A DNA stretch of 64,000 nucleotides, taken from positions 3,638-67,637 of the forward strand of contig CAZEBW010000004.1 in NCBI GenBank assembly GCA_964510205.1. Reading direction: 5' to 3'. The position numbers and the translations under genes were made by a program. A model generated the notes under the pieces. The model was not told where the DNA came from, searched no databases, and was given only the letters and a program-made list of their open reading frames with translations. Each line of letters starts with the position of its first letter. Position 1 is the stretch's first letter. The DNA comes from an uncultured Anaerolineae bacterium. GTDB taxonomy: Bacteria; Chloroflexota; Anaerolineae; VGOG01. Shown here piece by piece: positions 27,921 through 50,302 of the stretch.

Positions 27921-27975
27921 GGTTCACTTTTCACGTTTTTTACGTTTCACGTTTCACGCTTCACGCATCACGTAG
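27921..27975. repeat. Heptamer tandem array TTTCACG (about 7 imperfect copies)
   Basis: ggttcacttttcacgttttttacgtttcacgtttcacgcttcacgcatcacgtagg. Confidence 0.8.
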
Positions 27976-29502: not shown

Positions 29503-31119
29503 TTGATGAAAGCTATACTGTCTCCAAGTGGCAGACGTAAAACGTCAAGCGTGAAACGTGAAACGTCAAACGTAGAACGTCAAGCGTCAGGTGCCAGGGG
29601 TCAAACGTTGAGGTTCAAAGCTATCTTGGCGACCTTGCTGATAAGCTTGGGGGCGCTGATCTTGTGCCAATCCCTGAGGGTGGAAGGGTCGCCCGTCCCC
29701 GCCTCTCCTGTCCTCCAGACTGAGGAGGAGAGGACGGCGGCGAGCGACGCGCCGTATCGGGCCCGCATCGTGATCAGCACTTCCTCTGACTGGACGCGGC
29801 TCTACGTTCGAGGTGGAGAGCGCATTTTGAACGCCAAAACTGCTATCCTGCAGGGCGACGCCGCCACGACGAAAGCGGAGTGGGACGGCGACGAGCTCTA
29901 TTTGGAACAGCCTCTGGCCAATGCTCCAGCCCAGACGGTCAAAGTGCAGTACGATCTGGTGATGACGGGCCTGGACAGTGACGGCCACGTCTTCTTCGAG
30001 AGCCAGAAAGGCGATTTGGGCGTCACCACCACGGAGTTCTACAATTACAGCTCATCTTCCGCTACTCCCATCGCCTCCTGGTCCAATCTGCTGGACAAAG
30101 CGGGCGATCCTTCCAATCCCTTCTCTTTTTCCATAGCCAGTTCCCATTTCACAACGGGTGGTCCCCTGCCCCTGCGGCACGTCTCGCCCAGATTGGTTTT
30201 GGCCTTTTATTATCCCTGGTACGATCTCGATTCCTGGTCGAGCCCAGTTCTCGAGGACCATCCGCTCATGCCTGCTAGTTCCGGCGACGTGGAAGCCATC
30301 ACCAGGCACGTCACCTGGGCACAGCAGCATGGCATTCACGGCTTCATCTCGTCCTGGTGGGGTTCGGGCAACTACCGCGATGCCAATTTCGCCAAGTTGC
30401 TCTCCGTGGCGGAAGGCACCGATTTCAAAGCAACTATCTACTTCGAAACCCTGGGCGAACGTTTCAGGACCCCCCAGGACGTTGTTCATCAGTTGGAGTA
30501 CGTCCTGGATTCCTACAGCGATCACCCCAACTTCCTGCGCTATCGGGGCCAGCCGGTGATTTTTCTTTACGCTGTGGACCACGTAGCCAGAGAGCCCGGC
30601 CAACCCCCCCTTCAGTCCTGGCAAGCCATACTGGGGCAGATGCGGGCTGATGGTTACGATGCAGTGTGGCTCGGCCAGACCTTCGATCCCAGCTATCTGC
30701 AGGTGTTCGACGGCCTGCACGCCTACGGCTTCTATGCCCCAGATATGGCTGAGGTGTACGCTTCGGTTTCGGGCCAGGTGAGGAGCTATCAATTCCTGCA
30801 CGACCCGACCGCCGAGCGGAAGATCTGGGCGCCAGCGGTCATGCCGGGCTATGACGACGACCTGTTGGGCCGCCCAGGTTCCTGGTATCTGGATCGAGCC
30901 GGTGGGGACGCCTACGGCTTCACTTTCCAAGCGGCCATTCAGTCCCAGGCCGATTGGATCGTCATCACCAGCTTCAACGAGTGGTGGGAGCACACTCACA
31001 TCGAGCCCAGCGACCGCTACGGGTTCACTTATCTGGGGCTGACTAAGGAGTGGTCGGACGCTTTTCTGGCTGGAGCTCCTCAACTCACTTTCCTGCCCCT
31101 GATCACCAAGAACTGGTAG
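29503..31119 (+). CDS. Membrane-anchored glycoside hydrolase, GH99-like
   Basis: N-terminal TM anchor. LAFYYPWYDLDSW and ITSFNEWWEHTHIEPS resemble GH99 endo-alpha-mannosidase blocks (recalled from memory). An alternative TTG start at 29608 would exclude the repeat-encoded tail. Confidence 0.5.
   Translation: MMKAILSPSGRRKTSSVKRETSNVERQASGARGQTLRFKAILATLLISLGALILCQSLRVEGSPVPASPVLQTEEERTAASDAPYRARIVISTSSDWTRLYVRGGERILNAKTAILQGDAATTKAEWDGDELYLEQPLANAPAQTVKVQYDLVMTGLDSDGHVFFESQKGDLGVTTTEFYNYSSSSATPIASWSNLLDKAGDPSNPFSFSIASSHFTTGGPLPLRHVSPRLVLAFYYPWYDLDSWSSPVLEDHPLMPASSGDVEAITRHVTWAQQHGIHGFISSWWGSGNYRDANFAKLLSVAEGTDFKATIYFETLGERFRTPQDVVHQLEYVLDSYSDHPNFLRYRGQPVIFLYAVDHVAREPGQPPLQSWQAILGQMRADGYDAVWLGQTFDPSYLQVFDGLHAYGFYAPDMAEVYASVSGQVRSYQFLHDPTAERKIWAPAVMPGYDDDLLGRPGSWYLDRAGGDAYGFTFQAAIQSQADWIVITSFNEWWEHTHIEPSDRYGFTYLGLTKEWSDAFLAGAPQLTFLPLITKNW
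29534..29590. repeat. Heptamer tandem array GAAACGT (reverse complement of the TTTCACG family)
   Basis: gacgtaaaacgtcaagcgtgaaacgtgaaacgtcaaacgtagaacgtcaagcgtcagg. It lies in the 5' end of the 29503 ORF and is encoded as RRKTSSVKRETSNVERQAS. Confidence 0.8.
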
Positions 31120-34815: not shown

Positions 34816-34882
34816 GTGATTCGTAGGTTCGTAGATTCGTAAATTCGTGGGTTCGTAGATTCGTAAGTTCGTAGATTCGTGT
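34816..34882. repeat. Octamer tandem array TTCGTAGA (about 8 imperfect copies)
   Basis: gtgattcgtaggttcgtagattcgtaaattcgtgggttcgtagattcgtaagttcgtagattcgtg, immediately upstream of eno. Confidence 0.85.
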
Positions 34883-36973: not shown

Positions 36974-38437
36974 CTAGACAGACTCTTCCAGCTCCGGACG
37001 AGCCTCTTCTGTCAGCCTGGCGGCAGCCACCGCCAAACCGATGTACAGCCAGAACAGGGCCACGGCGTGGGGGAAGCTGAAGAGGTAATGGTCGAGGATG
37101 CCGCCTATCAGTCCCCCCACCACGGCTGTTTGAAGACCCAACAGGATGGCCTCCAAACGCGGATCGTGCTCCATGTTTTTCCAACTGCGCCAGGTATACC
37201 TGAAGAAGATGGCCATGATGACCAAGAACACGCCCAGCCCCACCAGGCCCATCTCCTCGGCGATGAGCAGGTAGAGGCTGGATACGCCCAGGTAGATGTC
37301 TATATCGGGCGTGCCGATGAAGCCTACGCCGATCCAGGGGTAGCGGCTGATGAGGATGAAGGCGTCTTTGTACTCCCCCAGACGCATTTGGCTGGCCAGG
37401 TCTTGAAACTGCACTCCCTCGGTGAAGTGTATGACGTATTCTCGCGTCTGCGGCAGGAGCAGGACGAGCAGGCCCGCAGCAGCCAGCACGGGCAACAGGC
37501 GGCGATACTTGATCACGGCCAGCAGGACCAGGGCGCAGCCGAGGCCGGCCATTGAGCCTCGCGAGAAGGTCAGAATCAGACAGAGGCCCATCGCCGCCAA
37601 CATGGGTGCGGCCAATGTGCGCTTCAGGAGCGGGCGCCGCGTGAAAAGCTGGGGGACGGTCAGCGACGCCACCAGGATCAACAGGCCGCCCAAAATGTTG
37701 GGGTCCACGGAGGTGCCGATGGCCCGCATGGGCAGCGAGGGGTCGTCGCGGATGAAGCGCAGCACCCCCCAGCCGGCCGGGTAGTTGAAGACGCGCAGGG
37801 CGGAGAGGAGGCGGACGGTGAGGGCGCGGGGCAGGAGATAGAGCACCACGCCAATCAGGGCTTCCCCGAAGCCGGCCAAGATGATGACCAGCACCAACTG
37901 CTCCAGCTCCTTGCGGGTGCGCACGCAGTTGACCGTTACGAAAAACAGGGCGATGCCCATGATGATCTCGGCGAAGCGGCGCACGGCGTTGGGCGTGGGA
38001 CTGGCGTGGGCCAGGCCGGCCACGAAGGAGACGAAGGCCAGGAACAGGAAAATGACGATGGGCAGGGCCAAAGGGGAGGTCACGAACTCCTGCTGCTGGC
38101 CGGTGACCAGGTGGGCCAGCCAGACGGCGAACAGCACCGCCAGCACCAGGTTCGGAAAAGTGGGGGTGAAGCCGATCTTGATGGGCAGGGCGCCGAAGGG
38201 CAGCAGGCAGACGATGCCGATGAGGGCCATGAAGCCGAATTGAGTGCTCTGCAACATCATCAGTCCGCTGACAAGCGCCATCACCAGGGCCGCCGTGATC
38301 AGCGGGCCGGGATAGGCGATCAGCCATCCCCCGATGATTCCCAGCGCCAGGCAGAGGGCTATCACCGCCAGGGCCACCACCCAGCGCTTGTCGGATACGA
38401 AAATGGATTGTAGGCGGTTGTAGGTGGAGTTTTGCAT
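36974..38437 (-). CDS. O-antigen ligase / polymerase family (Wzy_C-like) membrane protein
   Basis: About 12 TM helices, with a loop LTFSRGSMAGLG typical of the O-antigen ligase family. Confidence 0.7.
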   Translation of the reverse strand: MQNSTYNRLQSIFVSDKRWVVALAVIALCLALGIIGGWLIAYPGPLITAALVMALVSGLMMLQSTQFGFMALIGIVCLLPFGALPIKIGFTPTFPNLVLAVLFAVWLAHLVTGQQQEFVTSPLALPIVIFLFLAFVSFVAGLAHASPTPNAVRRFAEIIMGIALFFVTVNCVRTRKELEQLVLVIILAGFGEALIGVVLYLLPRALTVRLLSALRVFNYPAGWGVLRFIRDDPSLPMRAIGTSVDPNILGGLLILVASLTVPQLFTRRPLLKRTLAAPMLAAMGLCLILTFSRGSMAGLGCALVLLAVIKYRRLLPVLAAAGLLVLLLPQTREYVIHFTEGVQFQDLASQMRLGEYKDAFILISRYPWIGVGFIGTPDIDIYLGVSSLYLLIAEEMGLVGLGVFLVIMAIFFRYTWRSWKNMEHDPRLEAILLGLQTAVVGGLIGGILDHYLFSFPHAVALFWLYIGLAVAAARLTEEARPELEESV

Positions 38438-38447
38438 AAAGACCTCC

Positions 38448-38580
38448 GGGGTTCGTAGATTCGTAAATTCGTAAATTCGTAAATTCGTAGATTCGTAGAT
38501 TCGTGGGTTCGTGGATTTGATCCCGAATTTATGAGTCCCGAGTCTACGAATCTACCAGTTTCACGTTTCACGTTTTACGG
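38448..38580. repeat. Octamer array TTCGTAGA (about 9 copies), one inverted unit, then TTTCACG heptamers
   Basis: ggggttcgtagattcgtaaattcgtaaattcgtaaattcgtagattcgtagattcgtgggttcgtgg ... tctacgaatcta ... cagtttcacgtttcacgttttacgg. Confidence 0.85.
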
Positions 38581-38800
38581 TAATGGTGACAGGCAGTAGG
38601 ATTCTGTTGTCCTTTATCTCTCCATCATCTCCCAAGATTGGCAATCGTTGCTCTGTCGCCAGTTCGTACATTCCGACCTCCAGCCAATGTGGTCCCGCTG
38701 GAGTGTCCTCTCGGACAGTCAGGATGTACTCGTCTTCGATGACCTCGCCGACGTCCCAGACGGAAGTGGGATAATCGCCCTCCAAAGGCTGGCTGTCCAT
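38561..38800 (-). pseudogene. Detached C-terminal half of the second C-terminal module of the 38882-40990 GT-C protein
   Basis: In the same frame as the upstream ORF, 27 sense codons after its TAA. YPTSVWDVGEVIEDEYILTV...LEVGMYELATEQRLPIL...NRILL aligns with the ends of the paralogs. Confidence 0.7.
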
Positions 38801-38821
38801 CTGCCCCCAGATGTGCGCCGC

Positions 38822-38893
38822 GACGTCATGTGATGAAGCCGCCGCGACGTCATATGATGAAGCGGCCTCGACGTCATATGATTAAGCGGCCTC
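38822..38893. repeat. 24-bp tandem repeat, 3 copies
   Basis: gacgtcatgtgatgaagccgccgc / gacgtcatatgatgaagcggcctc / gacgtcatatgatTaagcggcctc. The third copy carries the stop codon of the GT-C ORF. Confidence 0.9.
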
Positions 38894-40990
38894 GTCAATC
38901 AGGTGGGTGAAGATGGTGTAATCGGTGTCCATCTCTGCCTCAGCTCGCCAGTAGAGGGTCAGGTGGATCTCCTCGTCTGGCCTAAGCTCGACTTTGTCCA
39001 CTTTGTATCCGATCAGAGTGACCTTGTTATCCAGGTTGAAATCCAACGGGTTATCAATCGCTACCTCCCGACGTTCTCGCGGGAGCATCTTCAACTGACC
39101 GATGACGACGCTTGGGGGATCAAGTTTTGAACCAGTGGTGGGGTCGTAGTGCCCCACCTCAACTCGCACGAGGCTGGGCGCTTGGGCGTCCTCGCTGATG
39201 GGCAGCCGATAGGCGTCGGCGATGATCCCCCCTGGGGCCCACAAGCTGGTGGGATACGAACCCCAACCGGGATAGGTGTCCTCAGATCCCACTAGTTCGC
39301 CCCCGCGCCCCAGCAGGTGGATAAACAGGTAGTAGTCCTTCTCCTCCATCTCCGCCAGCCCCTGCCAGTAGAAAGTGACGCCCAGCGTCTCGCCCGGCCT
39401 GACCGTCTCTCTATCTAGTTTGAAACCGAGCAGTCGGATTTTCTCTCCAAAATCGTGGACCACCCCTGGCGGGACCTCGCTGGGGGAGACGATGGGCGGC
39501 CTGGCGTAGGCAGGGTGGATGTAGACAAATGGACAGAGGGCGGCGAAGGCGAACATGGCCAGACCTATCACCGTCACCAGGATGTTAACGTATCTCCCAG
39601 ATACCAGTTGGCTCAGGCCCAGCATCAGCAGGACGGATATGGCGGAGATGGCGGGAAATAGCAGCCGTCCCTGGCTGGCGGGCGTCGTCCACGTCCAGCG
39701 AACTAGTCCCGCGAAGACGATGCCCAGCCAGAGGATGAGGACAAAGAAACCAGGTTTTTCCCGTTTCACAGTACTTCCCTGGGCGTTTGGAGTGTTCGTA
39801 AACTGGTGTGTTTTGGGTCCAAAGGATGCGAAAAACCTGGTTTCTGACAACCAACGCCGTCTCACAAACCAAATCCCCAAGCCCACCAGGGCCAGCAAGC
39901 TTACCACGTCCAGGATGGCGTAGGCGGCGGGCGCAACCAAGATGCTGAACCAGCCAAACAGCGCCCAGAAAGACATGCGCAGGCCCCGAAACTCGCCCCA
40001 CAGTTCTGACAGATTCGATGGCCCACTATCTCGGCCCACCACGGCCAGCATGGCGTTGAGGCCGGTCGGGTCCCCGTAAAGCTGCCAATTCCTGACGTAC
40101 CACCAGCCAGCCACCGCCAGCACTACGGCAAGGACGATCAGCCCCCCGATCAACGGCCTCGCCGACCGGCGGCGGTAGGCTTGCACGACGAGGACGACGG
40201 CGGTCAAGATCAACAGGCCCAGGCCGCTGAGCTTGGAGAGGCAGGCCAAACCTAGGACGAGGCCCAACAACACGTAATACGCAATACGCAATACGAACAG
40301 GCGGCGTGTTGCGTACTGCGTATTGCGTATTTCGTATTGCGTATTGCGTACCAACAGAAGCAGCGTCAGTGACGATAGGAAGACCACTAGATTGTCGTTG
40401 TTGATGGAGCTGCTGATGAACAAGAACTGCGGGATGAAGGCGTTGATGGCTGCGGCGCCGAGGGCGAGGTGTTCGCGGTCAGGGAAGACCTCCAGAGCGA
40501 GTCTATGCGTCAAGAACACGGTGCCTGCCCCCAGGAGCACCGACAGCAGGCGGACGAGGTGCACCGCCAAAGCTGTGCCCTGAAAGGGGAAACTCTCCCG
40601 CCGGGTATGGACGATCACGTTCTTGTTGCCTGCATCCAGCGGCGTGCCGACGTTGCGCTGGGGATTGTACCAGAGTAGGTCCTCCGCCTCGCTGGTATCG
40701 CTCCAGAAAGTGGTCAGTGCGCCGATCAGGTAATACAGAGGCGGCTGGCTGCCCTCCTGCTCCCACAATCCCGGCTCTTCGGGGTTCTGCACCGGCAGTC
40801 CCTTCCCATCAGCAAGATGCTTGATGAAGAAGTAGTGGTAGATCTCATCGGGCGCCTCGAAGATGGGCGTGACCAGGCTGTAGGTGATGCCCAGGGCGAT
40901 GAACGTGGTTAGAATTAGGGTTATGGCCCAGTGTTGTCTCATAGTGCAAAGTCCTACGTCCCACGTCCTACGTCTCACGTCCGAAGTCAT
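38882..40990 (-). CDS. GT-C fold glycosyltransferase (PMT/ArnT-like, GT39/83 type), paralog 1; truncated by an in-frame TAA
   Basis: N-terminal loop FEAPDEIYHYFFIKHLADGKGLP (acidic DE motif), about 11 TM helices, and C-terminal LTLYW-type modules. ATGA start/stop overlap with paralog 2. Confidence 0.8.
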   Translation of the reverse strand: MTSDVRRRTWDVGLCTMRQHWAITLILTTFIALGITYSLVTPIFEAPDEIYHYFFIKHLADGKGLPVQNPEEPGLWEQEGSQPPLYYLIGALTTFWSDTSEAEDLLWYNPQRNVGTPLDAGNKNVIVHTRRESFPFQGTALAVHLVRLLSVLLGAGTVFLTHRLALEVFPDREHLALGAAAINAFIPQFLFISSSINNDNLVVFLSSLTLLLLVRNTQYEIRNTQYATRRLFVLRIAYYVLLGLVLGLACLSKLSGLGLLILTAVVLVVQAYRRRSARPLIGGLIVLAVVLAVAGWWYVRNWQLYGDPTGLNAMLAVVGRDSGPSNLSELWGEFRGLRMSFWALFGWFSILVAPAAYAILDVVSLLALVGLGIWFVRRRWLSETRFFASFGPKTHQFTNTPNAQGSTVKREKPGFFVLILWLGIVFAGLVRWTWTTPASQGRLLFPAISAISVLLMLGLSQLVSGRYVNILVTVIGLAMFAFAALCPFVYIHPAYARPPIVSPSEVPPGVVHDFGEKIRLLGFKLDRETVRPGETLGVTFYWQGLAEMEEKDYYLFIHLLGRGGELVGSEDTYPGWGSYPTSLWAPGGIIADAYRLPISEDAQAPSLVRVEVGHYDPTTGSKLDPPSVVIGQLKMLPRERREVAIDNPLDFNLDNKVTLIGYKVDKVELRPDEEIHLTLYWRAEAEMDTDYTIFTHLIDEAA
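40273..40351. repeat. Inverted pair of heptamer arrays AATACGC / GCGTATT inside a CDS
   Basis: gtaatacgcaatacgcaatacgaa...ttgcgtactgcgtattgcgtatttcgtattgcgtattgcgtac, translated as VRNTQYEIRNTQYATRRLFVLRIAYY. Confidence 0.85.
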
Positions 40991-41024
40991 TGACTTAGGA
41001 CCTCGGACTTAGGACCTAGGACTA
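40951..41024. repeat. Inverted heptamer arrays GTCCTAC(G) / GGACCTA spanning a gene junction
   Basis: gtcctacgtcccacgtcctacgtctcacgtcc and ggacctcggacttaggacctaggac. These encode the N-terminus of paralog 1 and the C-terminus of paralog 2. Confidence 0.75.
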
Positions 41025-43332
41025 TTCTCACTTTGCTCAACAGGATTCGGTTGCCCATCAGCCGGCCGTCCTGGTCGAGGAGGTCTAAGCGATTCCCGGT
41101 CTCAGCCAGGTAGAGCCCCACCTCGATCTCGTAGACGTCGGGAGGGGCGTCGGGGGCGATGTCTAGCTCGTATTGGTCCACGACGATTTGCCCCCTGGCC
41201 CAGGCGGAAGTGGAAGGCTGCGGCTGGCGGTCCGCTCCTGCCCAGATCTGATCTCCCTCTCTCAGCAGGTGGACGAAGACGGTGTAGGCGTCCCTCATCT
41301 CGGCCAGGCTCTGCCAGTACAGAGTAAGGTGGATGGCTTCGCCCGGCTCGGCCTTTCTGCGGTCCATCTCGTAGCCCACCAGGGCGATCTGGCCCCCAAA
41401 GTTGAAATGCACCGGATTGGGCAGCCCGGTTTCGGACCTGGGCAAGACCCCGATTTTCCCGAAGCGCACGTTATCTCCCGCAAGTTCTCCATTGGCCCCG
41501 TACACGGGTAGGCGTTCGCCCGTCGCAGCGTCGTAAGGCCCCACCTCCAGTTGGGCCGAACTGGGGGCGTAGGTCGTCTCTGGCAGCGTCAGGGTGTAGG
41601 CGTCCGCGATGGCGTCGCCGGCCTGCCACAGCGTGGTAGGGAAGCTGCCCAGTCCGGGGAAGGTGTTCCTCTGGGCTATGACGAGATCGTTTTCGTCCAG
41701 CAGGTGAACGAAGACGGCGTAGTCCCGGTTCATCTCGGCCAGGGATTGCCAGTACAGGGTGACGGTTAGCGAATCGCCGGGTTGCAGGTTGTAGGTTGTA
41801 GGTTGCAGGTTGTAGCCCAGCAGCTTCATCACTCCGCCGAAGTTCATATCCAGGCGATTTGGGATGGCCTCGATCTGTTCGGGAGAGAGCAGGGGCGGCC
41901 TGGCGTAGGCTGGGGCGATGTAGGCCACGGGACAGATGCAGGCGAACACGAACATCGCTCCGGCCAGCAGGGCTGTGGCCTTGCCTCGCCAGCGGGTGGG
42001 AATGAGTTGTAACCATCCCAGCAGGGGCAGGATGGCGAGGGACGCAGTGGCTGGGAAGAGGTGCCGCCCAGAGGGTGCAAAGACCCACTGCAGCCAGCGC
42101 AGCAGGGCGGCGAAGACCAGTAAGCTCCACAGCAGGAGCAGGGCTAAGCCCTGCCATGTGTCATTGCGAGGAGCGGAGCGACGAAGCAATCTCCTCCTTG
42201 CGGCTTGGGGATTGCTTCGCTTCGCTCGCAATGACACATCCGTGAGTTTGGTCCCGTTTCTAACGACTAGAACTAACAGCCCCAGGGCGCCCAGGCGCAC
42301 CACAATTCGCAGGACGGTGTAGATCCAAGGGTGGACGTGGACATTGCCCCAGCCGAAGGCGGCCCAAAAGGACAGCTCCATCTGAGAGAACTCGTGGATC
42401 AACTCGCCGAGGGTGAGCTGCGGCCGGCCGGGGCCCACGATGGCTTGGTGGATCTGCACCCCCAGCGGGTCGCCGTGCAATCGCCAATTCAAAGTATACC
42501 ACCATCCGGCTACGATGGCAACAACAGCAAAGACGATCAGGCATGCCTTGAGAAAGGCCCACCCAGAGCCTCTGCGCCAGGCGGCCATGGCGATGGCCAC
42601 GACCGCAGCAGGCAGCAGGGCCAGCGCGCTCGCTTTGGTGATGAGGGCCAATCCCACGGTCAGCCCCAGCCAGACCAGACGGCGGGTGGAGAGGCCCCTT
42701 CTCCTCAGGCGGACCATGAGCCACAGGGCCAGGGTGCACAGGGCCGACACTGCGCTGTCGTTGCTCACTGCACTTGATATAAAGATGAACTGCGGATTGA
42801 AGGCCACCAGGCCCGCTGCACCAGCGGCGAAAGAACGTTGCCGGGGGAACAACTCCAGCGCAATCAGATAGGTGGCCAAGACGGTGGTTGCTCCCCAGAG
42901 CACCGACACCAGGCGGGCCATACGAACGGCCAACACCGCGCCGCGATAGGGGAAGCGTTCCTCGTTGGTGTGAAGCACTCGGTTTTTGTTGTCGTTGACC
43001 GTGCCAGGCGCGCTGTAGCCCCAGAAAGGATTGAGCCACGCCAGGTTCTGCCAATCGTCGTCTTCGATCCAGAACGTAGCCAAAGCCGCCGTGACATAAT
43101 ACAGTGGGGGCTGGGTGGCCTCCTGTCTCATCAGAGGCTGCGTTTGCGCCAGGCTCTGCACCGGCAGACCTTTCCCGTCGCCCAGCCATTTGACGTAAGG
43201 GTAATGCCACAACTCGTCGGGCTTCTCGAAGAGGGGCGTGGCTGCGTTGTAGGCGATGCCCAGGGCGAAAAACGCGGTTAGGATTAGGATGATGGCCCAA
43301 TGTTGTTTGATGGTCCGAGGTCCCCTATCCAT
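40987..43332 (-). CDS. GT-C fold glycosyltransferase (PMT/ArnT-like), paralog 2
   Basis: FEKPDELWHYPYVKWLGDGKGLP, multi-TM core, and two C-terminal modules of about 120 aa (TVTLYWQSLAEM..., HLTLYWQSLAEM...). Confidence 0.85.
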   Translation of the reverse strand: MDRGPRTIKQHWAIILILTAFFALGIAYNAATPLFEKPDELWHYPYVKWLGDGKGLPVQSLAQTQPLMRQEATQPPLYYVTAALATFWIEDDDWQNLAWLNPFWGYSAPGTVNDNKNRVLHTNEERFPYRGAVLAVRMARLVSVLWGATTVLATYLIALELFPRQRSFAAGAAGLVAFNPQFIFISSAVSNDSAVSALCTLALWLMVRLRRRGLSTRRLVWLGLTVGLALITKASALALLPAAVVAIAMAAWRRGSGWAFLKACLIVFAVVAIVAGWWYTLNWRLHGDPLGVQIHQAIVGPGRPQLTLGELIHEFSQMELSFWAAFGWGNVHVHPWIYTVLRIVVRLGALGLLVLVVRNGTKLTDVSLRAKRSNPQAARRRLLRRSAPRNDTWQGLALLLLWSLLVFAALLRWLQWVFAPSGRHLFPATASLAILPLLGWLQLIPTRWRGKATALLAGAMFVFACICPVAYIAPAYARPPLLSPEQIEAIPNRLDMNFGGVMKLLGYNLQPTTYNLQPGDSLTVTLYWQSLAEMNRDYAVFVHLLDENDLVIAQRNTFPGLGSFPTTLWQAGDAIADAYTLTLPETTYAPSSAQLEVGPYDAATGERLPVYGANGELAGDNVRFGKIGVLPRSETGLPNPVHFNFGGQIALVGYEMDRRKAEPGEAIHLTLYWQSLAEMRDAYTVFVHLLREGDQIWAGADRQPQPSTSAWARGQIVVDQYELDIAPDAPPDVYEIEVGLYLAETGNRLDLLDQDGRLMGNRILLSKVRIVLGPKSEVLSQ
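41779..41816. repeat. Heptamer array GGTTGTA/GGTTGCA inside a CDS
   Basis: gggttgcaggttgtaggttgtaggttgcaggttgtag, translated as YNLQPTTYNLQP. Confidence 0.85.
42154..42240. repeat. Palindromic (MITE/REP-like) element, copy 2, in-frame inside the GT-C paralog 2 CDS
   Basis: catgtgtcattgcgaggagcggagcgacgaagcaatc...gattgcttcgcttcgctcgcaatgacacatc, translated as a loop ...DVSLRAKRSNPQAARRRLLRRSAPRNDTW... Confidence 0.8.
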
Positions 43333-43418
43333 AGTCCATAGTCCTAGGTCCGATGGAAGGCGGCCTCGGACCTAGCGCGATTTCACAAAACAGGCATTGA
43401 TTCTTGAGACAGCGTCCG

Positions 43419-43530
43419 CCAGGGGCTCCGCTGCGCTCAAGCCCCTGGCTCAGTCTACAAAGCCCCCGCTGGGGCTGGGGTCGTCAGGCCGCAGGCCTTT
43501 GTACCTGAGCCCGGCGGCTTCAGCCCCGGG
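43419..43530. repeat. Intergenic nested-hairpin element
   Basis: gccagggg...cccctggc, and ctcagtctacaaagcc...ggcctttgtacctgag enclosing gcccc/ggggc stems. Confidence 0.4.
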
Positions 43531-43583
43531 CGGAGTGGCGGCGGAGTCAACCTTTGTTGTGTGATGCAGTGCTAGGCTTGGAT

Positions 43584-45926
43584 TTATTTGACTCGTACTT
43601 TGCTCAACAGCACGCGGTCGTCCAGCAGCCGCCCGCCCTCCCCCACGATTCTCAGGCGGTCGCCTGTCTCCGCCAGGTAGAAGCCTATCTCGACGTCGTA
43701 CACGTCGGCGGGAGTGTCGGCATAGATGGTAAGTTCGTATTCGTCCACTATCGTCTGGCCGGGCTGCCAAGTCGAAGTGGGGGACTTGCCGTCCAGGGGC
43801 CAGCTATCCTCTTGGGCCCAGATGCGGTTCTCTTCTCCCAAAACGTGGGTGAACACGGAGTAGTCTTCTTTCATGTCAGCCAGCCCCTGCCAGTAGAGGG
43901 TCAGGTGGATGGTCTCGCCGGGCGCGGCCGTCCGTCGGTCCATATCGTATCCGACGAGGGCGATCTTGTTTGCGAAGTTGAAGTGGACGGGGTTGGGCGC
44001 CTCTGCTTCAGCTCGGGGCAGGATCTCGAATTGGTGGAAGCGGACGTTGTCGCCCAGGGCCTCTCCATTGGGAGCGTAGGCCGACAGCCGCTCCCCGGTG
44101 TCGAAGTTGTAGAGTCCCACGGCCAGTTGGGCTTGGTTGGGGGCGAAGGCCGTCTCTGGCAGGATGAGGACGTAGCGGTTGGCGATGGCCTCTCCTGGCG
44201 ACCAGAGGCTGGTGGGATAGAGGCCCTGTCCGGGGTACATGTCTCGTTGGGCGACGATGAGCTCGGTTTGGTCGAGCAGGTGGACGAAGGTGCTGTAGTT
44301 CTCGTTCATTTCGGCCAGGGCTTGCCAGTAGAGGGTGACCTCCAGTGAATCGCCAGGTTTCAGGTGACTGGGTATTGGGTATTGGGTATTGGGTATTGCG
44401 TAGCCTAGCAGCTTGATCACTTCGCCGAAGGAGACGTCGAGGCGGTTGGGGATGGCCGCGATCTCTGCTGGTGAGAGGGGTTGGGGTTTGGCGTAGGCGG
44501 GGGCGATGTAGCGGAAGGGGGTGGCGGCGGCGATGATGAACATCAGGCTGCCCAGCAGGCAGGCCAGCGTTTTGGTGTAAGCGAAGCGGCGGTTTTTGTA
44601 AGCGAAGCGACGGCGTCGGGGCACGAACTGGCTCAGGCCCAAGAAGAGCAGGATGGAGAGGGCCGAGATAGCTGAAAAGACCAGTCGCCCTTGAGAGGAC
44701 CAGGTCAGCAGCGCCCAGCGGATCAGGGATATGAACACGATGGCCGGCCAGGCCAGCAGCAGCGCTACTTTGATCCAGGCCTCTGGCCGTGGTTTGTCTC
44801 CAATCAATTTGCGAATCAGGAAGGCGATCACCCCCAGGGCGGCTGCTATGGCCATGAGATTCAGCAGGTCGTAGACCCAGGCATCCATGGGCACGTTCAC
44901 CCCGCCGAACAGGCCCCAGTACGACATGGCGAAGCCCTCACGCTCCCCCCACAATTGACGGAGGGTGGCGGGCGGGTGGCGCCGGCCCAGAATGTCCAGG
45001 AACACGTTTAGCCCCAGGGGGTCGCCGTAGAGCTTCCAATTCCTGACAAACCACCAGCCTGACAGGAGTGCAGCCAGACCCACCACGATGAGGCCGCCTT
45101 GCAGGAGAGTTCGCCAGGAGCGTTGACGGTAAGCAGCGTAGGCGACGGTCAGGCCCGCCAGCGCCAGGAGACCGATGGCGCTCTCTTTGGTCAGGATGGC
45201 CAATCCTATGACCAGCCCCAGCCATGCCCAATCGCGGTTTGCGGTTTGCGGTTTGCGATTTGCGATTTGTGGTTTGCGATTTGTGATTTTGACCATCATC
45301 AGCAGGGCCAGGCTGCACAAGGGCACCACCAAGTTGTCGTTGTTGATCGCGCCGCTGACGAACAGGAACATGGGAGTGAAGGCGTTGACGGCGGCTGCGC
45401 CCAGGGCCAAGTCCTCGCGGCCGGGGAAGATCTCCAGAGCGAGCAGGTAAGTCAGCAGCACCGTGGCCGCTCCCATCAACACCGAGAGGAAGCGTATGAG
45501 GTGCACGGCCAGGGCCGTCCCATGCCAGGGGAAGGCCTCTTGTTCGGAGTGTATGACCAAATTGGTGTTGCCGTCGGCGGTCAGCACGCCGTTATCCACG
45601 TGGGGGTTGGGCCATAACAGGGGCGGCTGGCCGTGGTAGGCGTCGTCGGTGTCAATCCAGAAAGTGGCCAGGGCGCCCAGGGCGTAGTACAGGGGCGGCT
45701 GGCTCCCCTCCTGCCGCCAGGGCTGATCAATGCCGGGATCCTGCACGGGTAGACCGTGGCCGTCCGCCAGGTGCTTGACGAAGGGGTAGTGCCACAACTC
45801 GTCGGAGGCCTCGAAGATGGGTGTGACTACGCTGTAGGCAACGCCCAGGGCGATAAACGTGGCCAGGATGAGGGCGATGGCTAAAGGTTGTAGGTTGTAG
45901 GTTCTAGATTTTAGGGTTGCGTTCAT
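43584..45926 (-). CDS. GT-C fold glycosyltransferase (PMT/ArnT-like), paralog 3
   Basis: FEASDELWHYPFVKHLADGHGLP, multi-TM core, and two C-terminal modules. ATGA overlap with paralog 4. Confidence 0.85.
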   Translation of the reverse strand: MNATLKSRTYNLQPLAIALILATFIALGVAYSVVTPIFEASDELWHYPFVKHLADGHGLPVQDPGIDQPWRQEGSQPPLYYALGALATFWIDTDDAYHGQPPLLWPNPHVDNGVLTADGNTNLVIHSEQEAFPWHGTALAVHLIRFLSVLMGAATVLLTYLLALEIFPGREDLALGAAAVNAFTPMFLFVSGAINNDNLVVPLCSLALLMMVKITNRKPQIANRKPQTANRDWAWLGLVIGLAILTKESAIGLLALAGLTVAYAAYRQRSWRTLLQGGLIVVGLAALLSGWWFVRNWKLYGDPLGLNVFLDILGRRHPPATLRQLWGEREGFAMSYWGLFGGVNVPMDAWVYDLLNLMAIAAALGVIAFLIRKLIGDKPRPEAWIKVALLLAWPAIVFISLIRWALLTWSSQGRLVFSAISALSILLFLGLSQFVPRRRRFAYKNRRFAYTKTLACLLGSLMFIIAAATPFRYIAPAYAKPQPLSPAEIAAIPNRLDVSFGEVIKLLGYAIPNTQYPIPSHLKPGDSLEVTLYWQALAEMNENYSTFVHLLDQTELIVAQRDMYPGQGLYPTSLWSPGEAIANRYVLILPETAFAPNQAQLAVGLYNFDTGERLSAYAPNGEALGDNVRFHQFEILPRAEAEAPNPVHFNFANKIALVGYDMDRRTAAPGETIHLTLYWQGLADMKEDYSVFTHVLGEENRIWAQEDSWPLDGKSPTSTWQPGQTIVDEYELTIYADTPADVYDVEIGFYLAETGDRLRIVGEGGRLLDDRVLLSKVRVK
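44368..44405. repeat. Heptamer array GGGTATT inside a CDS
   Basis: ctgggtattgggtattgggtattgggtattgcgtagcc, translated as IPNTQYPIPS. Confidence 0.85.
45229..45293. repeat. Heptamer array GGTTTGC/GATTTGC (about 8 copies) inside a CDS
   Basis: cgcggtttgcggtttgcggtttgcgatttgcgatttgtggtttgcgatttgtgatttt, translated as KITNRKPQIANRKPQTANRDW. Confidence 0.85.
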
Positions 45927-48900
45927 TGCACTTGCACCTTGCTCAACAGAATGCGGTCGCCGGGCAAAGGTTCGCCCTGTTCATCGAAAGCGGGAAGTCG
46001 CTGCATGGTCTCCAAATCGTACATCCCCACTTCGATCTGGTACTCGCCGGCCGGTGCGGCCGCGTCCACGATGATCTCGTATTCGTCTACCACGACCTCG
46101 CCGGGAAGCCAGCTCGTCGTCGGATGCGCGCCCCTCATGGGAAGGTTATCTTTTTGCCCCCAGGTGCGATTCTGGGCGTCTACGAGGTGGGTGAAGACGG
46201 TGTAGCTGGTCTCCATTTCTTGCTGTAAGCGAAGCGGCGCTTGCCAGTAGAGGGTGAGGTGCAGCGTGCCGCCTGGCTTCACGGTGGTCTTGTCGAGATC
46301 GTAGCCGAGGAAGGCCACCTTGTCAGCCAGGTTCGCTCGCAAGGGATGTTGGATGTCGGTGGGCGCGGTGAAAAGCCGCTCAGGGGCGATTACCGACAAT
46401 GTCGCCAGAGGTTGGAAGTCGGAAGTTGGAGATTGGAGGTTGGAAGGTTGAATTTTGAAGTTTAAGCTTTGCTCGCCCGTTGGAGCAGCGGCATCAACCG
46501 CCAGGTCGTATTGGCCGCGAATGACCTCGCCTTCCTTCCAGCGGCTGGTGGGGTATTCTTCGTTGGCCAATGGGAACTCTCCCCTGGCCCAAACGTTTCC
46601 CGTGCTGTCTTGCATCTGTAGATGAAGGCGGTAGTCGCTTTCCATCGAGCGCAGCGCCCGCCAGAAGAGCGCGGCTCGCATTGTCTCCCCCGCCCGCGCT
46701 TCGGTGGACGACAGGTCGTAGCCCAGGAGTTCCACCTGGCCGTCGAAGTCGTGACGCAGGGGGTGGGGGATGGCCAGCTCCTCGATGGTCGGCGGCACGC
46801 TGGGGCTGGCTACGGCGACTGTCCCCAAGGCGTACTCCGTACCCGCTGGCGCGTTCCTTTCGTCCAAGATGCGCAGGCTTTGCAGCGTGTCCACATCATA
46901 AACGACCAGCTCCACTTGATAGCGGCCCGGCGGGATGCCAGGCAGCAGGGAGAGGGTATGATGCCTCTCCACGATCCCGCCCACCTCCCAGGCATAGGTC
47001 GCCAGGCCGTCTTCGTTCTCCAGCCATTCGTCTGTTTGGCTCCAAAGGCGCCCCTGTTCGTCCACCAGGCGGAGGGAGAGGGCGTAGCCCTCCTGCATCT
47101 GCGCCTGGGTCTCCCACCGAAGGGCGACCCCCAACTGCTTTCTGTACTCGATGATGTCCCCGGTGAAGCCGTGGCCCGTCAGCCGCAAGCGGTTGCCGAA
47201 ATTGACGTTAGCCTGGACCTGGATGGGGCTCAAATCCAGGTCCAGAGGAGAGGTGAGGAGATAGCGAGAGACGGTGGTATGGGGAAGGGCCTCTCGGCCG
47301 ATGAGCAGGGCATGGGTATTCAGTTGGTAACTGATCCAATTGCCCATATCGCTTTCTGGGTAGGCCACGTACCATAGCTGTCGGGGCGCGGCGGACTCTG
47401 TTAGCTTGTCGGTCATGTCGGTCCAGCCCTGGCTATCGGAGACGACGTAGTAGGTCAGCGGCCCTTGATAATGCTTGACGAAGGGCGAGTCGGCGTCGAG
47501 CAGCACGACGTCGTCCGGCTGAGCCTGGCTCTCCAAATAGGCGATCAGCTCTTGGTAGTAAGTGTTGGGATAGATCCAGGCGTAGTCCACGCCGCGAATC
47601 TTGACCACGTGCTCTGGCTGCTGTTGACCGTGGAGAGCCGCTGTGACGGGCGAGTCTTGCTGCACATCGCTGACGTAGAGCACGGCGTAATCGGCGGTAG
47701 CTGTGTTGTGCTCCGTCAGTGCTTCCGTCTGGCCCTTGAACAGGGGGGCGAACCCTGGGATGTCCCAGGTGGCAACGCGAAGGTCTGTTGCATTCTCCTT
47801 TTGATTCAAATATCTGGCCGCCAGATCCATGCCCTCGCCCCAGCCCGCGGGCAGGATTTGGATGGCTCTGGATGTGCCGCCCAGCAGGGGGTTGGCGTAG
47901 GCCAGATAGTAGGGATGGTAGGGCAAGGCGAGAGCAGCCTGGAGGAGCACCACTAAGCTCAGAGCCAGCTCGATCCCCCATCTCCAATGCCTGGATAGGA
48001 AGGCTTCGATGAAATAGACCCACCCAACAGCGGCCAGGATGTCAAGGGCCAGAAAGGCGGGCAATAGATACCGCTCGAACTTCTTGGCCCCCACGGCCAG
48101 AGTGATCGTGACCAGGGAAACGTAGACGAGCAGGGCGAGTACCTCGAACCACTTCGAACCTCTTTTCTTTACGATGGCCCAAAATGCTGCTGCCAGTAGG
48201 CCCAGCCAGACGAGGGGCGTCGTCCTGAAGAGCAGGCTGAAGGGATAGAACCAGGGGCCTGGGTCGGAGACGGACTGACCGAGGAAGAAGTTGACGGGGT
48301 GAGGGGTGGCGGCGAAGCGGTGGGCGAGTCCGAAGGTGCCGCGCAGGGTCTCGACGGGAGAGACCCACATAGCTGGCCAAAGGGCCACAAAAGCGATAAC
48401 CGCTACCATGCACCACACCGAGAGGGACCGTAGCGAACTGAAAATCGGCTTGGCCCACGCCTGCCCTGAGCCTTGTCCTGAGGCCGCTTCGCCTACAGTC
48501 GAAGCGTGTCGCCGGAGGATTGCCGACTTCGTGAGACCCTCGAAGCTGAGCAAAAGGGCGGCGAAGGGTAGCAGAGCGAAGGCGGTGGCCTTGGTCAGAA
48601 AGGCCAGGCCGGCTAGGCACCCTGAGAGGCCGAGGTAAACAAGGGAGCGATTATGCCTCAGGTAGACGAGAAGGCTCAGGACGGACAGGATCATCAGGTT
48701 GGCCGCCGCCCCGTCGGTGTGGAAGACTCGCGAATGGGCCAGGTGGAAGGGGTCGAAGCAAATCAAGAGCGCGGCCAGGAGGGCCACCCTCCCCCCGAAG
48801 AGTTTCCTGGTCAGGAGGTATACCCCCACCGCGCTCGCTGCGCCGAGGAGAACGAGTGGGAGCTTGGCTGCCACCAGGAAGAGGGCCAGGCGGCGCAGGG

Positions 48901-49234
48901 CAGCTACGTTGTACAAATCAAGCGTGGCTAGCTGTTGCAGCCAGTTCCACTCGGCCGCCCCTTGCCCCAGCAGGAGCTGGCCGGCTGCCCCCAAAGCCCC
49001 GGCCCACATGATGGTCACCCCAGGCGCCCCCACCTGGAAGGTATCGGCGAAGCGCCCGCTCTCTATGGCAGAGAGGAAGCGGAGCGAGCGGTAGACCCAC
49101 ATTGGCTCGTCCCAGGTGATGAAGGTGTTGAGGGCCAGGATGCGGGGCAGCAAGGCCAAAACGAAAAGGCCCAGGCAGATGAGCGTTTGTCGCTTCTTGT
49201 TACGAAATCGCATTCGCCGCTGGCTCATTTTCAA
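45923..49234 (-). CDS. GT-C fold glycosyltransferase (ArnT/PMT-like), paralog 4, 1103 aa
   Basis: ITWDEPMWVYRSLRF N-loop, multi-TM core, a central soluble region and three C-terminal modules. Confidence 0.8.
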   Translation of the reverse strand: MKMSQRRMRFRNKKRQTLICLGLFVLALLPRILALNTFITWDEPMWVYRSLRFLSAIESGRFADTFQVGAPGVTIMWAGALGAAGQLLLGQGAAEWNWLQQLATLDLYNVAALRRLALFLVAAKLPLVLLGAASAVGVYLLTRKLFGGRVALLAALLICFDPFHLAHSRVFHTDGAAANLMILSVLSLLVYLRHNRSLVYLGLSGCLAGLAFLTKATAFALLPFAALLLSFEGLTKSAILRRHASTVGEAASGQGSGQAWAKPIFSSLRSLSVWCMVAVIAFVALWPAMWVSPVETLRGTFGLAHRFAATPHPVNFFLGQSVSDPGPWFYPFSLLFRTTPLVWLGLLAAAFWAIVKKRGSKWFEVLALLVYVSLVTITLAVGAKKFERYLLPAFLALDILAAVGWVYFIEAFLSRHWRWGIELALSLVVLLQAALALPYHPYYLAYANPLLGGTSRAIQILPAGWGEGMDLAARYLNQKENATDLRVATWDIPGFAPLFKGQTEALTEHNTATADYAVLYVSDVQQDSPVTAALHGQQQPEHVVKIRGVDYAWIYPNTYYQELIAYLESQAQPDDVVLLDADSPFVKHYQGPLTYYVVSDSQGWTDMTDKLTESAAPRQLWYVAYPESDMGNWISYQLNTHALLIGREALPHTTVSRYLLTSPLDLDLSPIQVQANVNFGNRLRLTGHGFTGDIIEYRKQLGVALRWETQAQMQEGYALSLRLVDEQGRLWSQTDEWLENEDGLATYAWEVGGIVERHHTLSLLPGIPPGRYQVELVVYDVDTLQSLRILDERNAPAGTEYALGTVAVASPSVPPTIEELAIPHPLRHDFDGQVELLGYDLSSTEARAGETMRAALFWRALRSMESDYRLHLQMQDSTGNVWARGEFPLANEEYPTSRWKEGEVIRGQYDLAVDAAAPTGEQSLNFKIQPSNLQSPTSDFQPLATLSVIAPERLFTAPTDIQHPLRANLADKVAFLGYDLDKTTVKPGGTLHLTLYWQAPLRLQQEMETSYTVFTHLVDAQNRTWGQKDNLPMRGAHPTTSWLPGEVVVDEYEIIVDAAAPAGEYQIEVGMYDLETMQRLPAFDEQGEPLPGDRILLSKVQVQ
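46409..46468. repeat. Heptamer array GGTTGGA/AGTTGGA (about 8 copies) inside a CDS
   Basis: gaggttggaagtcggaagttggagattggaggttggaaggttgaattttgaagtttaagc, translated as LNFKIQPSNLQSPTSDFQP. Confidence 0.85.
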
Positions 49235-49276
49235 CTCCGAGGTAATGCGTTTCTCCCGCTATTCTTGTGCCTGCTC

Positions 49277-50302
49277 TCAATCTGGCTCTGCGGTGAGGGC
49301 TGAGCTCTCAACGGCAGCCTCGTGCGAAGCGCCTGCCCGCTCAATCAACTCAAATCCTTCCCGCGAGAGATAGAAGTAGCCCAAGGCCAGGGGGAGTATG
49401 TGAGTGGCCCGAAAAAGGAGGGCGAAGGCTAGTGCATCGCTCCTGTCGGCGGAGAAGACCGCGAGTATGCCGGCGAAAACGAATTCCAGAGTACCCACTT
49501 TGCCAGGCAGAGCCGGGACGAGGCTTGCCAAGTTGAAGATGACCAGCAGAAGGACATAGATGTATCCGGACAGGGATATGCCTAACGAGGCGCCGGTCAG
49601 AAGAAAGGTGATCAGCATAAGAGACCAAGCCGAAAACGATAGAAGGACTGAGAGCGCCATCCCTCTTCCCTCTTTCAAAATCAACATCCCTTTGCTGAAG
49701 GAGGCCAACAGGTTCTTGGCTTTGGAGGCCAGAGAGGGAGAGATTTTGGCCAACCCCGTGGTCAGCAGATGGGTGATGTCTTCCCCTCGGTGATACCAGC
49801 TCGCCAGGAGAAGGAGGCCGACGGCAAATAGAAGGCCGGCCAGACCACCCACGTACATGATCCAGTCGGGCAGCGGGAAAAGACGGAGGAGCACCAGCAG
49901 GCCAAAGAGTAGAATCAGCACATCGAGCATCCTCTCCACGACGATGGTCGCCAGAACCGTGCTGGTCCGCAGGCTTTCCCCTCTTGCCAGCGCGAAAGCG
50001 CGCAACAACTCGCCCGATTGGACGGGTAGAAAGTAGTTGCCGAAATAACCAATCAAAATCCTGGGCAGCAGAATGCGGACCCTCAAATCCTTAACCGGCC
50101 TGAGAAGATACTTCCAACGGGCGGCTCGCAAGCCGAAAGCCCCCAGGCGAAGCAAATTGGCCAGAACCAGATAGGAGTAGTCAGCTCCTCGCAGGGCCAA
50201 CGCGAGCTTTCCCGCCTCGATATTTCTCACGACCAGGAACAATAGGAGAAGGCTGATTCCAGTTCCGATCAGCAGCCGATATCTTTTCACCGTCAACCCC
50301 AA
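49277..50302 (-). CDS. Lysylphosphatidylglycerol-synthase-TM-like (flippase-like, UPF0104) membrane protein
   Basis: N-terminus RYRLLIGTGISLLLLFLVVRNI...LRAARWKYLL and about 8 TM helices, typical of the LPG_synthase_TM family. Confidence 0.7.
   Translation of the reverse strand: MGLTVKRYRLLIGTGISLLLLFLVVRNIEAGKLALALRGADYSYLVLANLLRLGAFGLRAARWKYLLRPVKDLRVRILLPRILIGYFGNYFLPVQSGELLRAFALARGESLRTSTVLATIVVERMLDVLILLFGLLVLLRLFPLPDWIMYVGGLAGLLFAVGLLLLASWYHRGEDITHLLTTGLAKISPSLASKAKNLLASFSKGMLILKEGRGMALSVLLSFSAWSLMLITFLLTGASLGISLSGYIYVLLLVIFNLASLVPALPGKVGTLEFVFAGILAVFSADRSDALAFALLFRATHILPLALGYFYLSREGFELIERAGASHEAAVESSALTAEPD

Follow-up and report, generated by a model that had tools for sequence, protein, structure and literature searches.

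Within genes, tandem repeats with a unit length not divisible by three are normally considered to be purged or to act as on/off switches, and phase-variable simple-sequence contingency loci are known in glycosyltransferase genes of Neisseria, Haemophilus and Campylobacter. The STRR-type heptamer repeats of cyanobacteria were reportedly described by Mazel et al. in 1990, while very small dispersed repeats (SDR, 21-27 nt) of cyanobacteria are said to have been reported by Elhai et al. in 2008. Rickettsia palindromic elements (RPE) reportedly lie in frame within protein-coding genes as copies of a 100-150 bp consensus (Ogata et al. in 2000), and the repeats of Borg elements inside open reading frames (ORFs) are said to have units that are multiples of three. 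Heptamer repeats are over-represented in many bacteria; those of Nostoc, Xanthomonas, Microcystis and Beggiatoaceae are described as mainly intergenic, under-represented in coding DNA, sometimes arranged as inverted pairs and of unknown origin (PMC4692102, PMC4679880). The unit TAACTGA is translatable in one orientation (LSVISYQ) and occasionally lies within ORFs (PMC4679880), background on simple-sequence contingency loci is also available (PMC4692102), and Borg elements have fast-evolving tandem repeats that create disordered protein regions (PMC9879509). Heptamer arrays are described below from a 64,000-nucleotide stretch of contig CAZEBW010000004.1 ("the window"), where they lie inside three tandem glycosyltransferase genes, par1, par2 and par3. 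The source is an Anaerolineae (Chloroflexota) metagenome-assembled genome (MAG) of about 60% G+C, and its nearest relatives are all Anaerolineae or Chloroflexota MAGs. The reading preferred here, with a probability of roughly 0.6, is that the arrays are STRR-like coding-region heptanucleotide microsatellites, the result of a genome-wide habit of heptamer slippage filtered by protein tolerance.

According to the ORF list and Pfam, positions 36974-50302 form a minus-strand envelope-glycan cluster composed of an LPG_synthase_TM-like gene, gtc4, the three tandem paralogs par3, par2 and par1, and a Wzy-like gene. Four of its genes, all on the minus strand, are predicted to encode GT-C glycosyltransferases (PMT_2 / ArnT-like): par1 (38882..40990, 702 aa), par2 (40987..43332, 781 aa, also supported by alignment), par3 (43584..45926, 780 aa, also modelled) and the fourth GT-C gene, gtc4 (45923..49234, 1103 aa). 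Their scores against PF13231 PMT_2 are 26.8, 39.4, 42.5 and 51.7 bits, respectively, with a gathering cut-off of 26.1, and residues E39, D42 and E43 of par3 (FEASDELWHY, first extracytoplasmic loop) are invariant across 98 sequences.

The arrays were located with Tandem Repeats Finder, and all of those discussed here for the GT-C genes are on the minus strand. Loop A of par1 carries two arms: the forward one (40304..40350, GCGTATT x6.7) reads (AATACGC)n on the coding strand and encodes the polar segment RNTQYEIRNTQYATR, and the reverse one (40268..40299, CAATACG x4) reads (GCGTATT)n and encodes the hydrophobic FVLRIAYYVL, entering transmembrane helix (TM) 5. Loop A of par3 (45234..45289, GCGATTT/GCGGTTT x8) is made of eight coding units (AAATCGC/AAACCGC) that encode NRKPQIANRKPQTANR, and loop A of par2 (42676..42711) is array-free. 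Loop B of par2 (41780..41815, GGTTGTA x5.1; coding (AACCTGC/AACCTAC) x5) is translated as NLQPTTYNLQP within a beta-hairpin of the first C-terminal module, that of par3 (44369..44402, TGGGTAT x4.9 with 96% matches; coding (AATACCC) x4.9) as IPNTQYPIP, and that of par1 (39398..39421, KLDRETVR) is array-free. An initial annotation of this DNA had placed arrays at these positions, and Tandem Repeats Finder bears it out, all of them lying inside the par1, par2 and par3 ORFs. The translations it gave are also exact, both for loop A (par1 VRNTQYEIRNTQYATRRLFVLRIAYY, par3 KITNRKPQIANRKPQTANRDW, and a short Arg-rich RLRRRGLSTRRL in par2) and for loop B (par2 NLQPTTYNLQP, par3 IPNTQYPIPS, par1 KLDRETVRPGE). 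A MAFFT alignment of the paralogs puts the loop A arrays in columns 221-250 and the loop B arrays in columns 556-566, in agreement with the homologous positions that it had claimed. Two such homologous co-locations would arise from four randomly placed array sites with P of about 0.0013.

A separate scan of the window for repeat periods found 11 arrays of period 7, two of period 8 and none of periods 5, 6 or 9-12, and no period-7 arrays appeared in dinucleotide-matched simulations of the window (n=40). The tracts have 3-8 units with 80-96% matches (Tandem Repeats Finder). Their sequences had been called unrelated, a description that fails for AATACGC (par1 loop A) and AATACCC (par3 loop B), which are one base apart, and for AATACGC and AAACCGC (par3 loop A), which are two bases apart; a difference of at most one base is seen in about 1% of random heptamer pairs, and of at most two in about 9%.

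The same period dominates in relatives, which were sampled as 76 genome loci (1.14 Mb) and an independent set of 79 metagenome loci (0.65 Mb), picked around GT-C genes and hence representing neighbourhoods rather than whole genomes, with about 325 GT-C genes in total. Period 7 accounts for 138 arrays in the genome loci and 157 in the metagenome loci, where the remaining periods between 4 and 12 add up to 14 and 5, respectively (295 versus 19 when both sets are pooled); counts over orthologs are non-independent events, and gene calls are greedy longest-ORF calls. Among the 138 heptamer arrays of the genome loci, 96 are internal to long ORFs, 71 of these in GT-C homologs. When projected on par2 residues, the arrays of 154 GT-C homologs from the genome loci fall at 209-221 (n=31), 510-513 (n=18), 1-15 (n=16), 443-449 (n=7), 632-637 (n=5), 262-267 (n=3) and 376 (n=1). 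The metagenome replicate gave 45 arrays in loop A, 24 in loop B, 10 in cytoplasmic loop (CL) 3, and 7 each in the N-terminal tail and the inter-module linker. Loops A and B are hot-spots in both gene sets, as had been proposed. The arrays belong to 57 canonical unit families, of which AATATCC (22 arrays) and AATACCC (10 arrays) are present at loops A and B as well as in GT4 genes and further proteins. Repeat-derived loop peptides recur in 120 database homologs (NTQYPIS, SNIQYPIS...LDIRYWIL, NLQPTTY, WSLVIGH and LGFGIWD, as well as NWETGKLV, derived from 8-mer repeats). Heptamer arrays are lacking altogether in 47 of 77 sources, and a locus is more likely to hold arrays at other places when its GT-C genes carry them (odds ratio 5.6, P = 0.025).

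The loops also vary among close relatives, as the initial annotation had expected. Internal indels in ten clusters of proteins at least 90% identical are located at array sites and measure mostly 7 aa (21 nt, 3 units), 14 aa or 8 aa (24 nt), and two clusters show a swap of the repeat family at loop B (DLPVTNTQYPISCTLM versus AQPTTSNLR, and DLPVTNTQYPV versus EVMSNEERG). Protein lengths are identical in several clusters of the same identity level that comprise 7-11 independent assemblies, and exact flanks of the par3 loop A array, used to scan metagenome contigs for alleles of other length, gave 0 matches. Looking up par3 itself by exact sequence in the assembly index likewise returned no record. 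The arrays are labile, not hypermutable. Since they lie in homologous columns and vary among relatives, neither of the two outcomes named beforehand as contrary to the annotation, namely arrays at non-homologous positions or arrays fixed and identical across all related genomes, is what was found.

The part of the annotation that finds no support is its preference for independent insertion over inheritance from a common ancestor, because every array of the window has an orthologous array at the same site in other genomes. Comparison of the loop DNA across orthogroups relates the arrays of the window to their orthologs by unit mutation, by expansion of three units or by seeding from a flanking unit. 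At loop B, the par2 and par3 orthogroups, as well as that of a further paralog, par3b, mostly share an AATAYCC array, ccaatatccaatacccaatatccaatatcc (DLPISNTQYPISSNLKPGD), in identical register in many genomes; no heptamer array was present at loop B of the par1 orthologs compared. The par3 loop B of the window is this common array homogenised to AATACCC, while the par2 loop B (aacctgc aacctac aacctac aacctgc) has a unit matching the aacctga that flanks the common array, and a near-identical allele is found in par3b of locus L010 and in P0023, a par3 ortholog. Loop A almost always has arrays in the par1 and par3 orthogroups, with GGATATT as a reverse arm common to both, and is array-free in 4 of 9 par2 genes compared (the window, L006, L012 and L005). 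The par3 loop A of the window equals the AAATCGC array of L003 plus three units (7 aa longer), and in par1 loop A the forward unit, ACGCAAT, corresponds to the unit at the edge of the L039/L001 array (acgcaat atccaat atccaat...); in the window it now fills the forward arm, and its complement fills the reverse arm. It is concluded from these alignments that the arrays are, in all probability, old residents of their sites, mostly inherited and renewed in place.

The positions involved were examined on an AlphaFold2 model of par3, built from an alignment of 98 sequences (predicted local distance difference test, pLDDT, 88.6; predicted template modelling score, pTM, 0.87), which has 11 transmembrane helices followed by two C-terminal beta-sandwich modules. 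Foldseek matched the membrane part to Pmt4 (9i5k), STT3 (6s7t/8agb) and ArnT (5f15); for the tail it returned tandem Ig-like domains. If the N-terminus is placed inside and the E39/D42/E43 loop outside, the positive-inside count is 22/73 K+R inside versus 7/162 outside. By the model and the positive-inside rule, loop A is predicted to be the cytoplasmic TM4-TM5 loop (CL2); a cytoplasmic location is likewise predicted for the N-terminal tail and for CL3, CL4 and CL5 (sites near 265, 376 and 445), which leaves only loop B (a beta-hairpin of residues 511-526) and the linker near residue 635 outside. The model loses confidence at the array sites, with pLDDT dips to 42 in the N-terminal tail, 71 in loop A, 68 in CL5 and 61 in loop B.

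The window has further repeats in and around the GT-C genes. Inverted arrays (GTCCTAR)n / (GTRGGAC)n at the par2 stop/par1 start junction (40945..41030) encode the final residues of par2 and the initial residues of par1, an (ACCTACA)n array (45885..45915) encodes RTYNLQP in the N-terminal tail of par3, and a short TCCATAG array (43328..43344) lies at the par2 start codon. In par3, the TM10-TM11 cytoplasmic loop contains a tandem duplication of 21 nt, RRFAYKN/RRFAYTK (44571..44612), at the cluster of par2 residues 443-449 where orthologs carry heptamer arrays, and the inter-module linker of gtc4 has a weak AACCTCC-type array (46411-46446), with ortholog arrays at the same linker.

The strand orientation of the arrays follows the protein. 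Arrays with an A+C-rich coding strand (70 arrays) encode peptides with a mean Kyte-Doolittle value of -0.99, and those with a G+T-rich one (25) of +0.74 (P = 3e-10). Loop B and the linker have the A+C orientation exclusively (16/0 and 4/0; 24/0 in the replicate), and G+T-rich arrays are confined to places where a cytoplasmic loop enters a helix, that is, the second half of loop A, CL3 and CL5. An inverted pair accordingly reads as a polar loop and then a hydrophobic helix start, as in par1 loop A (RNTQYEIRNTQYATRR followed by LFVLRIAYYVL). Arrays are found outside the GT-C family too: in relatives' loci, an ADP-forming acetyl-CoA synthetase and a MetH-like enzyme have them in the linkers between domains, and GT4 glycosyltransferases and a YfhO protein also contain internal arrays. 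Heptamer arrays of the window itself are found at 57120-57181, inside a GT4 glycosyltransferase gene (56100-57305, residues ~42-62), and a perfect 14-nt x2.4 repeat is located at 28862-28895, inside a Mur-ligase/FolC-like gene (28124-29482, residues ~246-257), so coding arrays are not confined to GT-C genes.

The initial annotation considered selection for variable, expandable surface loops, which would make these segments exposed loops under diversifying selection for variable length and sequence. Such an adaptive explanation is consistent with the location of loop B and the linker in extracytoplasmic modules and with the loop B alleles NTQYPIS, NLQPTTY, SNEERGT and QSSKFKA among close relatives. 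Only these two sites suit the term surface loops, however, as loop A, the N-terminal tail, CL3, CL4 and CL5, together with most arrays, are cytoplasmic by the model and the K+R count. The commonest loop B allele is moreover conserved across three orthogroups, and cytoplasmic enzymes show the same phenomenon, which makes diversifying selection very unlikely. Selection for variability is also unneeded, given that arrays lie in linkers of cytoplasmic enzymes and that strand orientation follows local protein needs, which is what a tolerance filter predicts.

According to the slippage-and-tolerance reading, the lineage would make and remodel 7-nt tandem arrays genome-wide, probably by replication slippage and by fold-back or template-switch copying, the latter giving inverted pairs. 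As three units amount to 21 nt, or 7 aa, an array free of stops in all frames can sit within a gene, and selection might retain arrays only where extra residues are tolerated and where the orientation of the peptide suits the position: A+C-rich strands would provide polar or basic peptides for loops, tails and linkers, and G+T-rich strands hydrophobic peptides lengthening the cytoplasmic start of a transmembrane helix. The permissive places of the GT-C family would be the N-terminal tail, CL2 (loop A), CL3, CL4, CL5, the loop B beta-hairpin of the first outer module and the inter-module linker, and since they are few, the same loops would recur in every paralog. The loop A and loop B arrays would either predate the paralogs or have spread among them. 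Renewal in place, by mutation of a unit and its spread, gains or losses of three units, take-over by an edge unit and copying between hairpin arms, would then result in the different heptamer families seen today across paralogs and genomes. We infer that slippage and template switching are the generators and that the arrays serve as spacers, with no dedicated function beyond that. What is described here is a lineage-wide inherited feature with fast turnover, with no sign of a purpose-built variable surface.

Several observations weigh against this reading. GT-C genes contain 74% of the internal arrays but 37% of the ORF bases, an excess to be read with the shared descent of the counts and the choice of loci around GT-C genes in mind. 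The gene calls are crude (longest-ORF), and arrays are possibly mis-sized in short-read MAG assemblies. A few heptamer families (AATAYCC; GGGGATT, TAACTGA) recur at unrelated sites, even in other phyla. The loop B array has 0.80 nucleotide identity between orthogroups versus 0.61 for the rest of the gene, and 0.79 versus 0.47 at third positions; each base of a heptamer unit takes all three codon positions in turn. Such conservation would not be expected of a neutral spacer; gene conversion, a peptide constraint spread by homogenisation, or a sequence-specific process could account for it. Synonymous identity of the loop B flanks is mildly raised, with the exception of par3/par3b within one genome (0.87 versus 0.63, n = 53), and the evidence for gene conversion as the source of the common loop B array is weak. 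A sequence-specific process could be, for instance, a dedicated enzyme or tiny mobile agent that makes and keeps the arrays, favours few heptamers and builds inverted pairs. Filamentous bacteria from several phyla (Cyanobacteria, Beggiatoaceae and Anaerolineae) would have it in common, given that identical units (GGGGATT, TAACTGA, TTGGTCA) recur in them. It is considered unlikely; if true, it would account for a loop B unit conserved at all codon positions across ancient paralogs and would represent a self-renewing source of protein segments, with a polar loop and a hydrophobic helix extension.

Some of the arrays form pronounced hairpins. The two arms of par1 loop A pair over about 33 bp (RNA fold -46 kcal/mol, z -5.1, 0/200 shuffles as good), and the junction of the par2 stop and par1 start folds at -38.9 kcal/mol (z -4.4). 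Adjacent array pairs are inverted complements in 9/33 cases in one set and 14/51 in the other (23/84 together, about 1% expected), in 8 unit families. It is possible, then, that array hairpins are kept because they act on the transcript or on DNA: they might, for example, affect how translation starts or pauses, serve as RNase III processing sites in the operon mRNA, or take part in replication or recombination, and the peptides would be a by-product. The joint change of both par1 arms in the window, from AATATCC/GGATATT to AATACGC/GCGTATT, and the nucleotide-level conservation of loop B fit this idea, as does a third hairpin at the start of a GT2 gene described below. In many orthologs, however, the homologous site has one arm only, or two arms that are not complementary (L002, L004, L007, L009 and L006), so the stem is not strictly maintained. 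The three single arrays named in the initial annotation are unstructured (z -0.15, -1.3 and +1.2), and an Rfam scan of the whole window returned no family at the gathering threshold. Template switching also yields matching arms, and mechanical copying between arms is sufficient for their complementarity. A role at the RNA or DNA level is regarded as unlikely.

The GT2 hairpin lies on the minus strand at 58441-58590, where a (GGAGGTT)n array resembling repeated Shine-Dalgarno sites precedes the gene, whose likely true start is an ATG near 58530 (MDLSIVIVNWN). The array pairs with (AACCTCC-like)n at codons ~23-32 in a structure of -57.8 kcal/mol (z -3.6) around the start codon, which, as far as the sequence indicates, may occlude translation. 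Another inverted couple, an ACGTTTC array and its complement GAAACGT (27919-27973 and 29535-29589, about 1.56 kb apart), flanks the Mur-ligase-like gene.

Small mobile insertions could also explain why unrelated sites and proteins, and even other phyla, share the same unit families; the arrays would then be tiny selfish elements that hit preferred targets repeatedly and survive as copies in frame at permissive positions. Allelic replacement of loop B inside clusters at least 90% identical would agree with this, and a true mini-element was found in one relative, L080. The arrays themselves are devoid of fixed termini, consensus length and target duplications, and the families at one site are joined by single-base steps and edge-unit seeding. 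The net change in length is small as well, the par2 loop B array being 36 nt long in a loop only 6 nt longer than an array-free one, and the L080 element is absent from the window and from the 79 other loci searched. Mobile insertion is thus a rather improbable origin of the arrays.

The L080 element is a 17-nt palindrome, CCCCACCTGGAGTGGGG, which, by comparison with L079, is present at 743-759, 1422-1438 and 1593-1609 of that locus, each copy with a 4-nt duplication (TTTG or TATG). The resulting 21-nt insertions are in frame in one GT-C gene and encode FAPPGVG twice and PHLEWDM. Loop A of L080 has a variant copy, CCCCACCTGAAGTGGGG, with a net gain of 9 nt only, and all copies are missing in the L079 allele, which is at least 90% identical. 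Judged by these sequence features, the palindrome looks like a tiny mobile element. It was also considered as the source of the window arrays and discarded because of its absence from the window and the other loci.

Heptamer tracts within the glycosyltransferase genes of a tandem cluster adjoining a Wzy-like gene, with copy number that varies among close relatives, recall contingency loci, in which plus or minus one or two units would frameshift a GT-C paralog and the population would vary its envelope glycans, e.g. for phage escape. One homolog, in L031, changes frame exactly at a TACTGCG array (16712-16799), and par1 of the window is truncated within a repeat. The L031 case is the single array-linked frame break in about 325 GT-C genes: a tblastn search for array-adjacent frame changes detected one in the genome loci (L031) and none in the metagenome loci, where the frame changes of L087 and L088 are due to a single extra C away from any heptamer array. 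Where relatives at least 90% identical differ at array sites, every step or swap preserves the frame, and, as noted, several clusters of 7-11 assemblies are constant. The tracts are short and imperfect, and they lie mid-gene and also in cytoplasmic housekeeping enzymes. Two half-length proteins, P0176 and P0177, looked like frameshift alleles split at an array, but one stops at the end of its contig and the other at a scaffold N-gap that coincides with the array. No support for phase variation was found in the consensus assemblies, which would conceal minority OFF variants, and switching of this kind is judged distinctly unlikely.

The truncation of par1 deserves a separate description. Its stop is an in-frame TAA at 38882-38884, and read-through alignment to orthologs indicates that the frame runs on to ~38563, for about 100 further codons. 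The last module of par1 holds a 24-nt x3 in-frame array, AASS[Y/H]DV[E/A] (38817..38891, minus strand), with TAA in unit 1 and TCA in the other units; the array of the L003 ortholog is intact, and the par1 orthologs of L087 and L088 have a one-base frameshift at the same spot as the TAA. It seems that the C-terminal half-module of par1 is decaying in more than one lineage, or that the TAA is a sequencing error. Upstream in the cluster, a 250-nt spacer separates par3 from par2 (43333-43583), where L001, L006 and L009 have the fourth paralog par3b; the spacer is probably a deletion scar. It includes a GC-rich element (43420-43565), present as a single copy in the window, that folds modestly better than shuffles (z -2.3).

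Two repeats of other periods were observed in the window. The octamer GATTCGTA forms arrays of about 8 copies each at 34818-34880 and 38452-38517, both in the same orientation on the plus strand, just 5' of the enolase gene and of the Wzy-like gene. A 126-nt x2.6 tandem repeat at 54310-54635 lies in a 763-aa ORF with 12 LVIVD repeats and is an ordinary protein-repeat duplication, unrelated to the heptamers.

A whole lineage thus keeps non-triplet repeats in frame, for evolutionarily long times, at a handful of permissive sites. They provide a natural map of insertion-tolerant positions in the GT-C glycosyltransferase fold and a clear case in which mutational bias and protein-level filtering jointly shape loop sequences. 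Annotators should take NTQYPIS, NLQPTTY, WSLVIGH and LDIRYWIL in Chloroflexota proteins as repeat-derived segments, not as motifs. The unexplained recurrence of particular heptamers across phyla now includes Chloroflexota, although the result does not amount to a new molecular system.

Compared with Borg repeats, the arrays likewise add low-complexity, poorly ordered segments through rapidly evolving repeats inside ORFs (PMC9879509); the unit here is 7, so that frame is kept by unit triplets only and each unit is read in three frames. The L080 palindrome, with its 4-nt duplication and a total of 21 nt that keep the frame, resembles the SDR of cyanobacteria, but it is absent from the window, whose features are tandem arrays and not unit-length insertions. 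The likeness to contingency loci is limited to a tract that is not a multiple of three inside glycosyltransferase ORFs and to its length polymorphism; here the array-site steps among close relatives are in frame, the tracts are short and imperfect, and the sites are cytoplasmic loops, mid-gene, as well as housekeeping enzymes. With RPE the arrays share translated palindromic DNA in ORFs at positions that spare the fold, which in RPE is read as selfish or neutral and filtered by tolerance. The translated palindromes at permissive sites that typify RPE-like elements and miniature inverted-repeat transposable elements (MITE) are indeed present (the par1 loop A hairpin, the 23/84 pairs and the pLDDT dips), but a consensus element with defined ends or target duplication is not seen in the arrays, and only the 17-nt element of L080 has a duplication. 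Unlike RPE, the arrays have no consensus element, only 7-nt units of dozens of families, and they appear to evolve by slippage in place, many of them being single and without a palindrome.

The closest resemblance is to STRR-type repeats, which also consist of tandem 7-nt units, with period 7 over-represented, many dispersed families, frequent inverted pairs and extensive length variation among relatives. Some units are even identical: GGGGATT (canonical AATCCCC) is known from Nostoc and TAACTGA (AACTGAT) from Beggiatoaceae and cyanobacteria, and TTGGTCA (AATGACC) is presumably the cyanobacterial STRR2, a literature search for the unit strings having given noise only. Sites with shared units were noted in relatives at L001 16702-16725 and at L061 9187-9231 and 17182-17207, as well as in several loci with WSLVIGH peptides. 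Full-text literature searches retrieved no report of heptamer repeats specific to Chloroflexi or Anaerolineae. STRR-type repeats are mainly intergenic, whereas here 96 of 138 arrays are in frame within ORFs (in a biased sample with crude gene calls), they cluster at hot-spots conserved within a single protein family, their orientation goes with membrane topology, and the host belongs to the Anaerolineae (Chloroflexota). What is new in comparison with the described systems is, therefore, the host phylum, the dominance of in-frame coding arrays, their persistence at paralogous hot-spots of a membrane enzyme, and the orientation rule.

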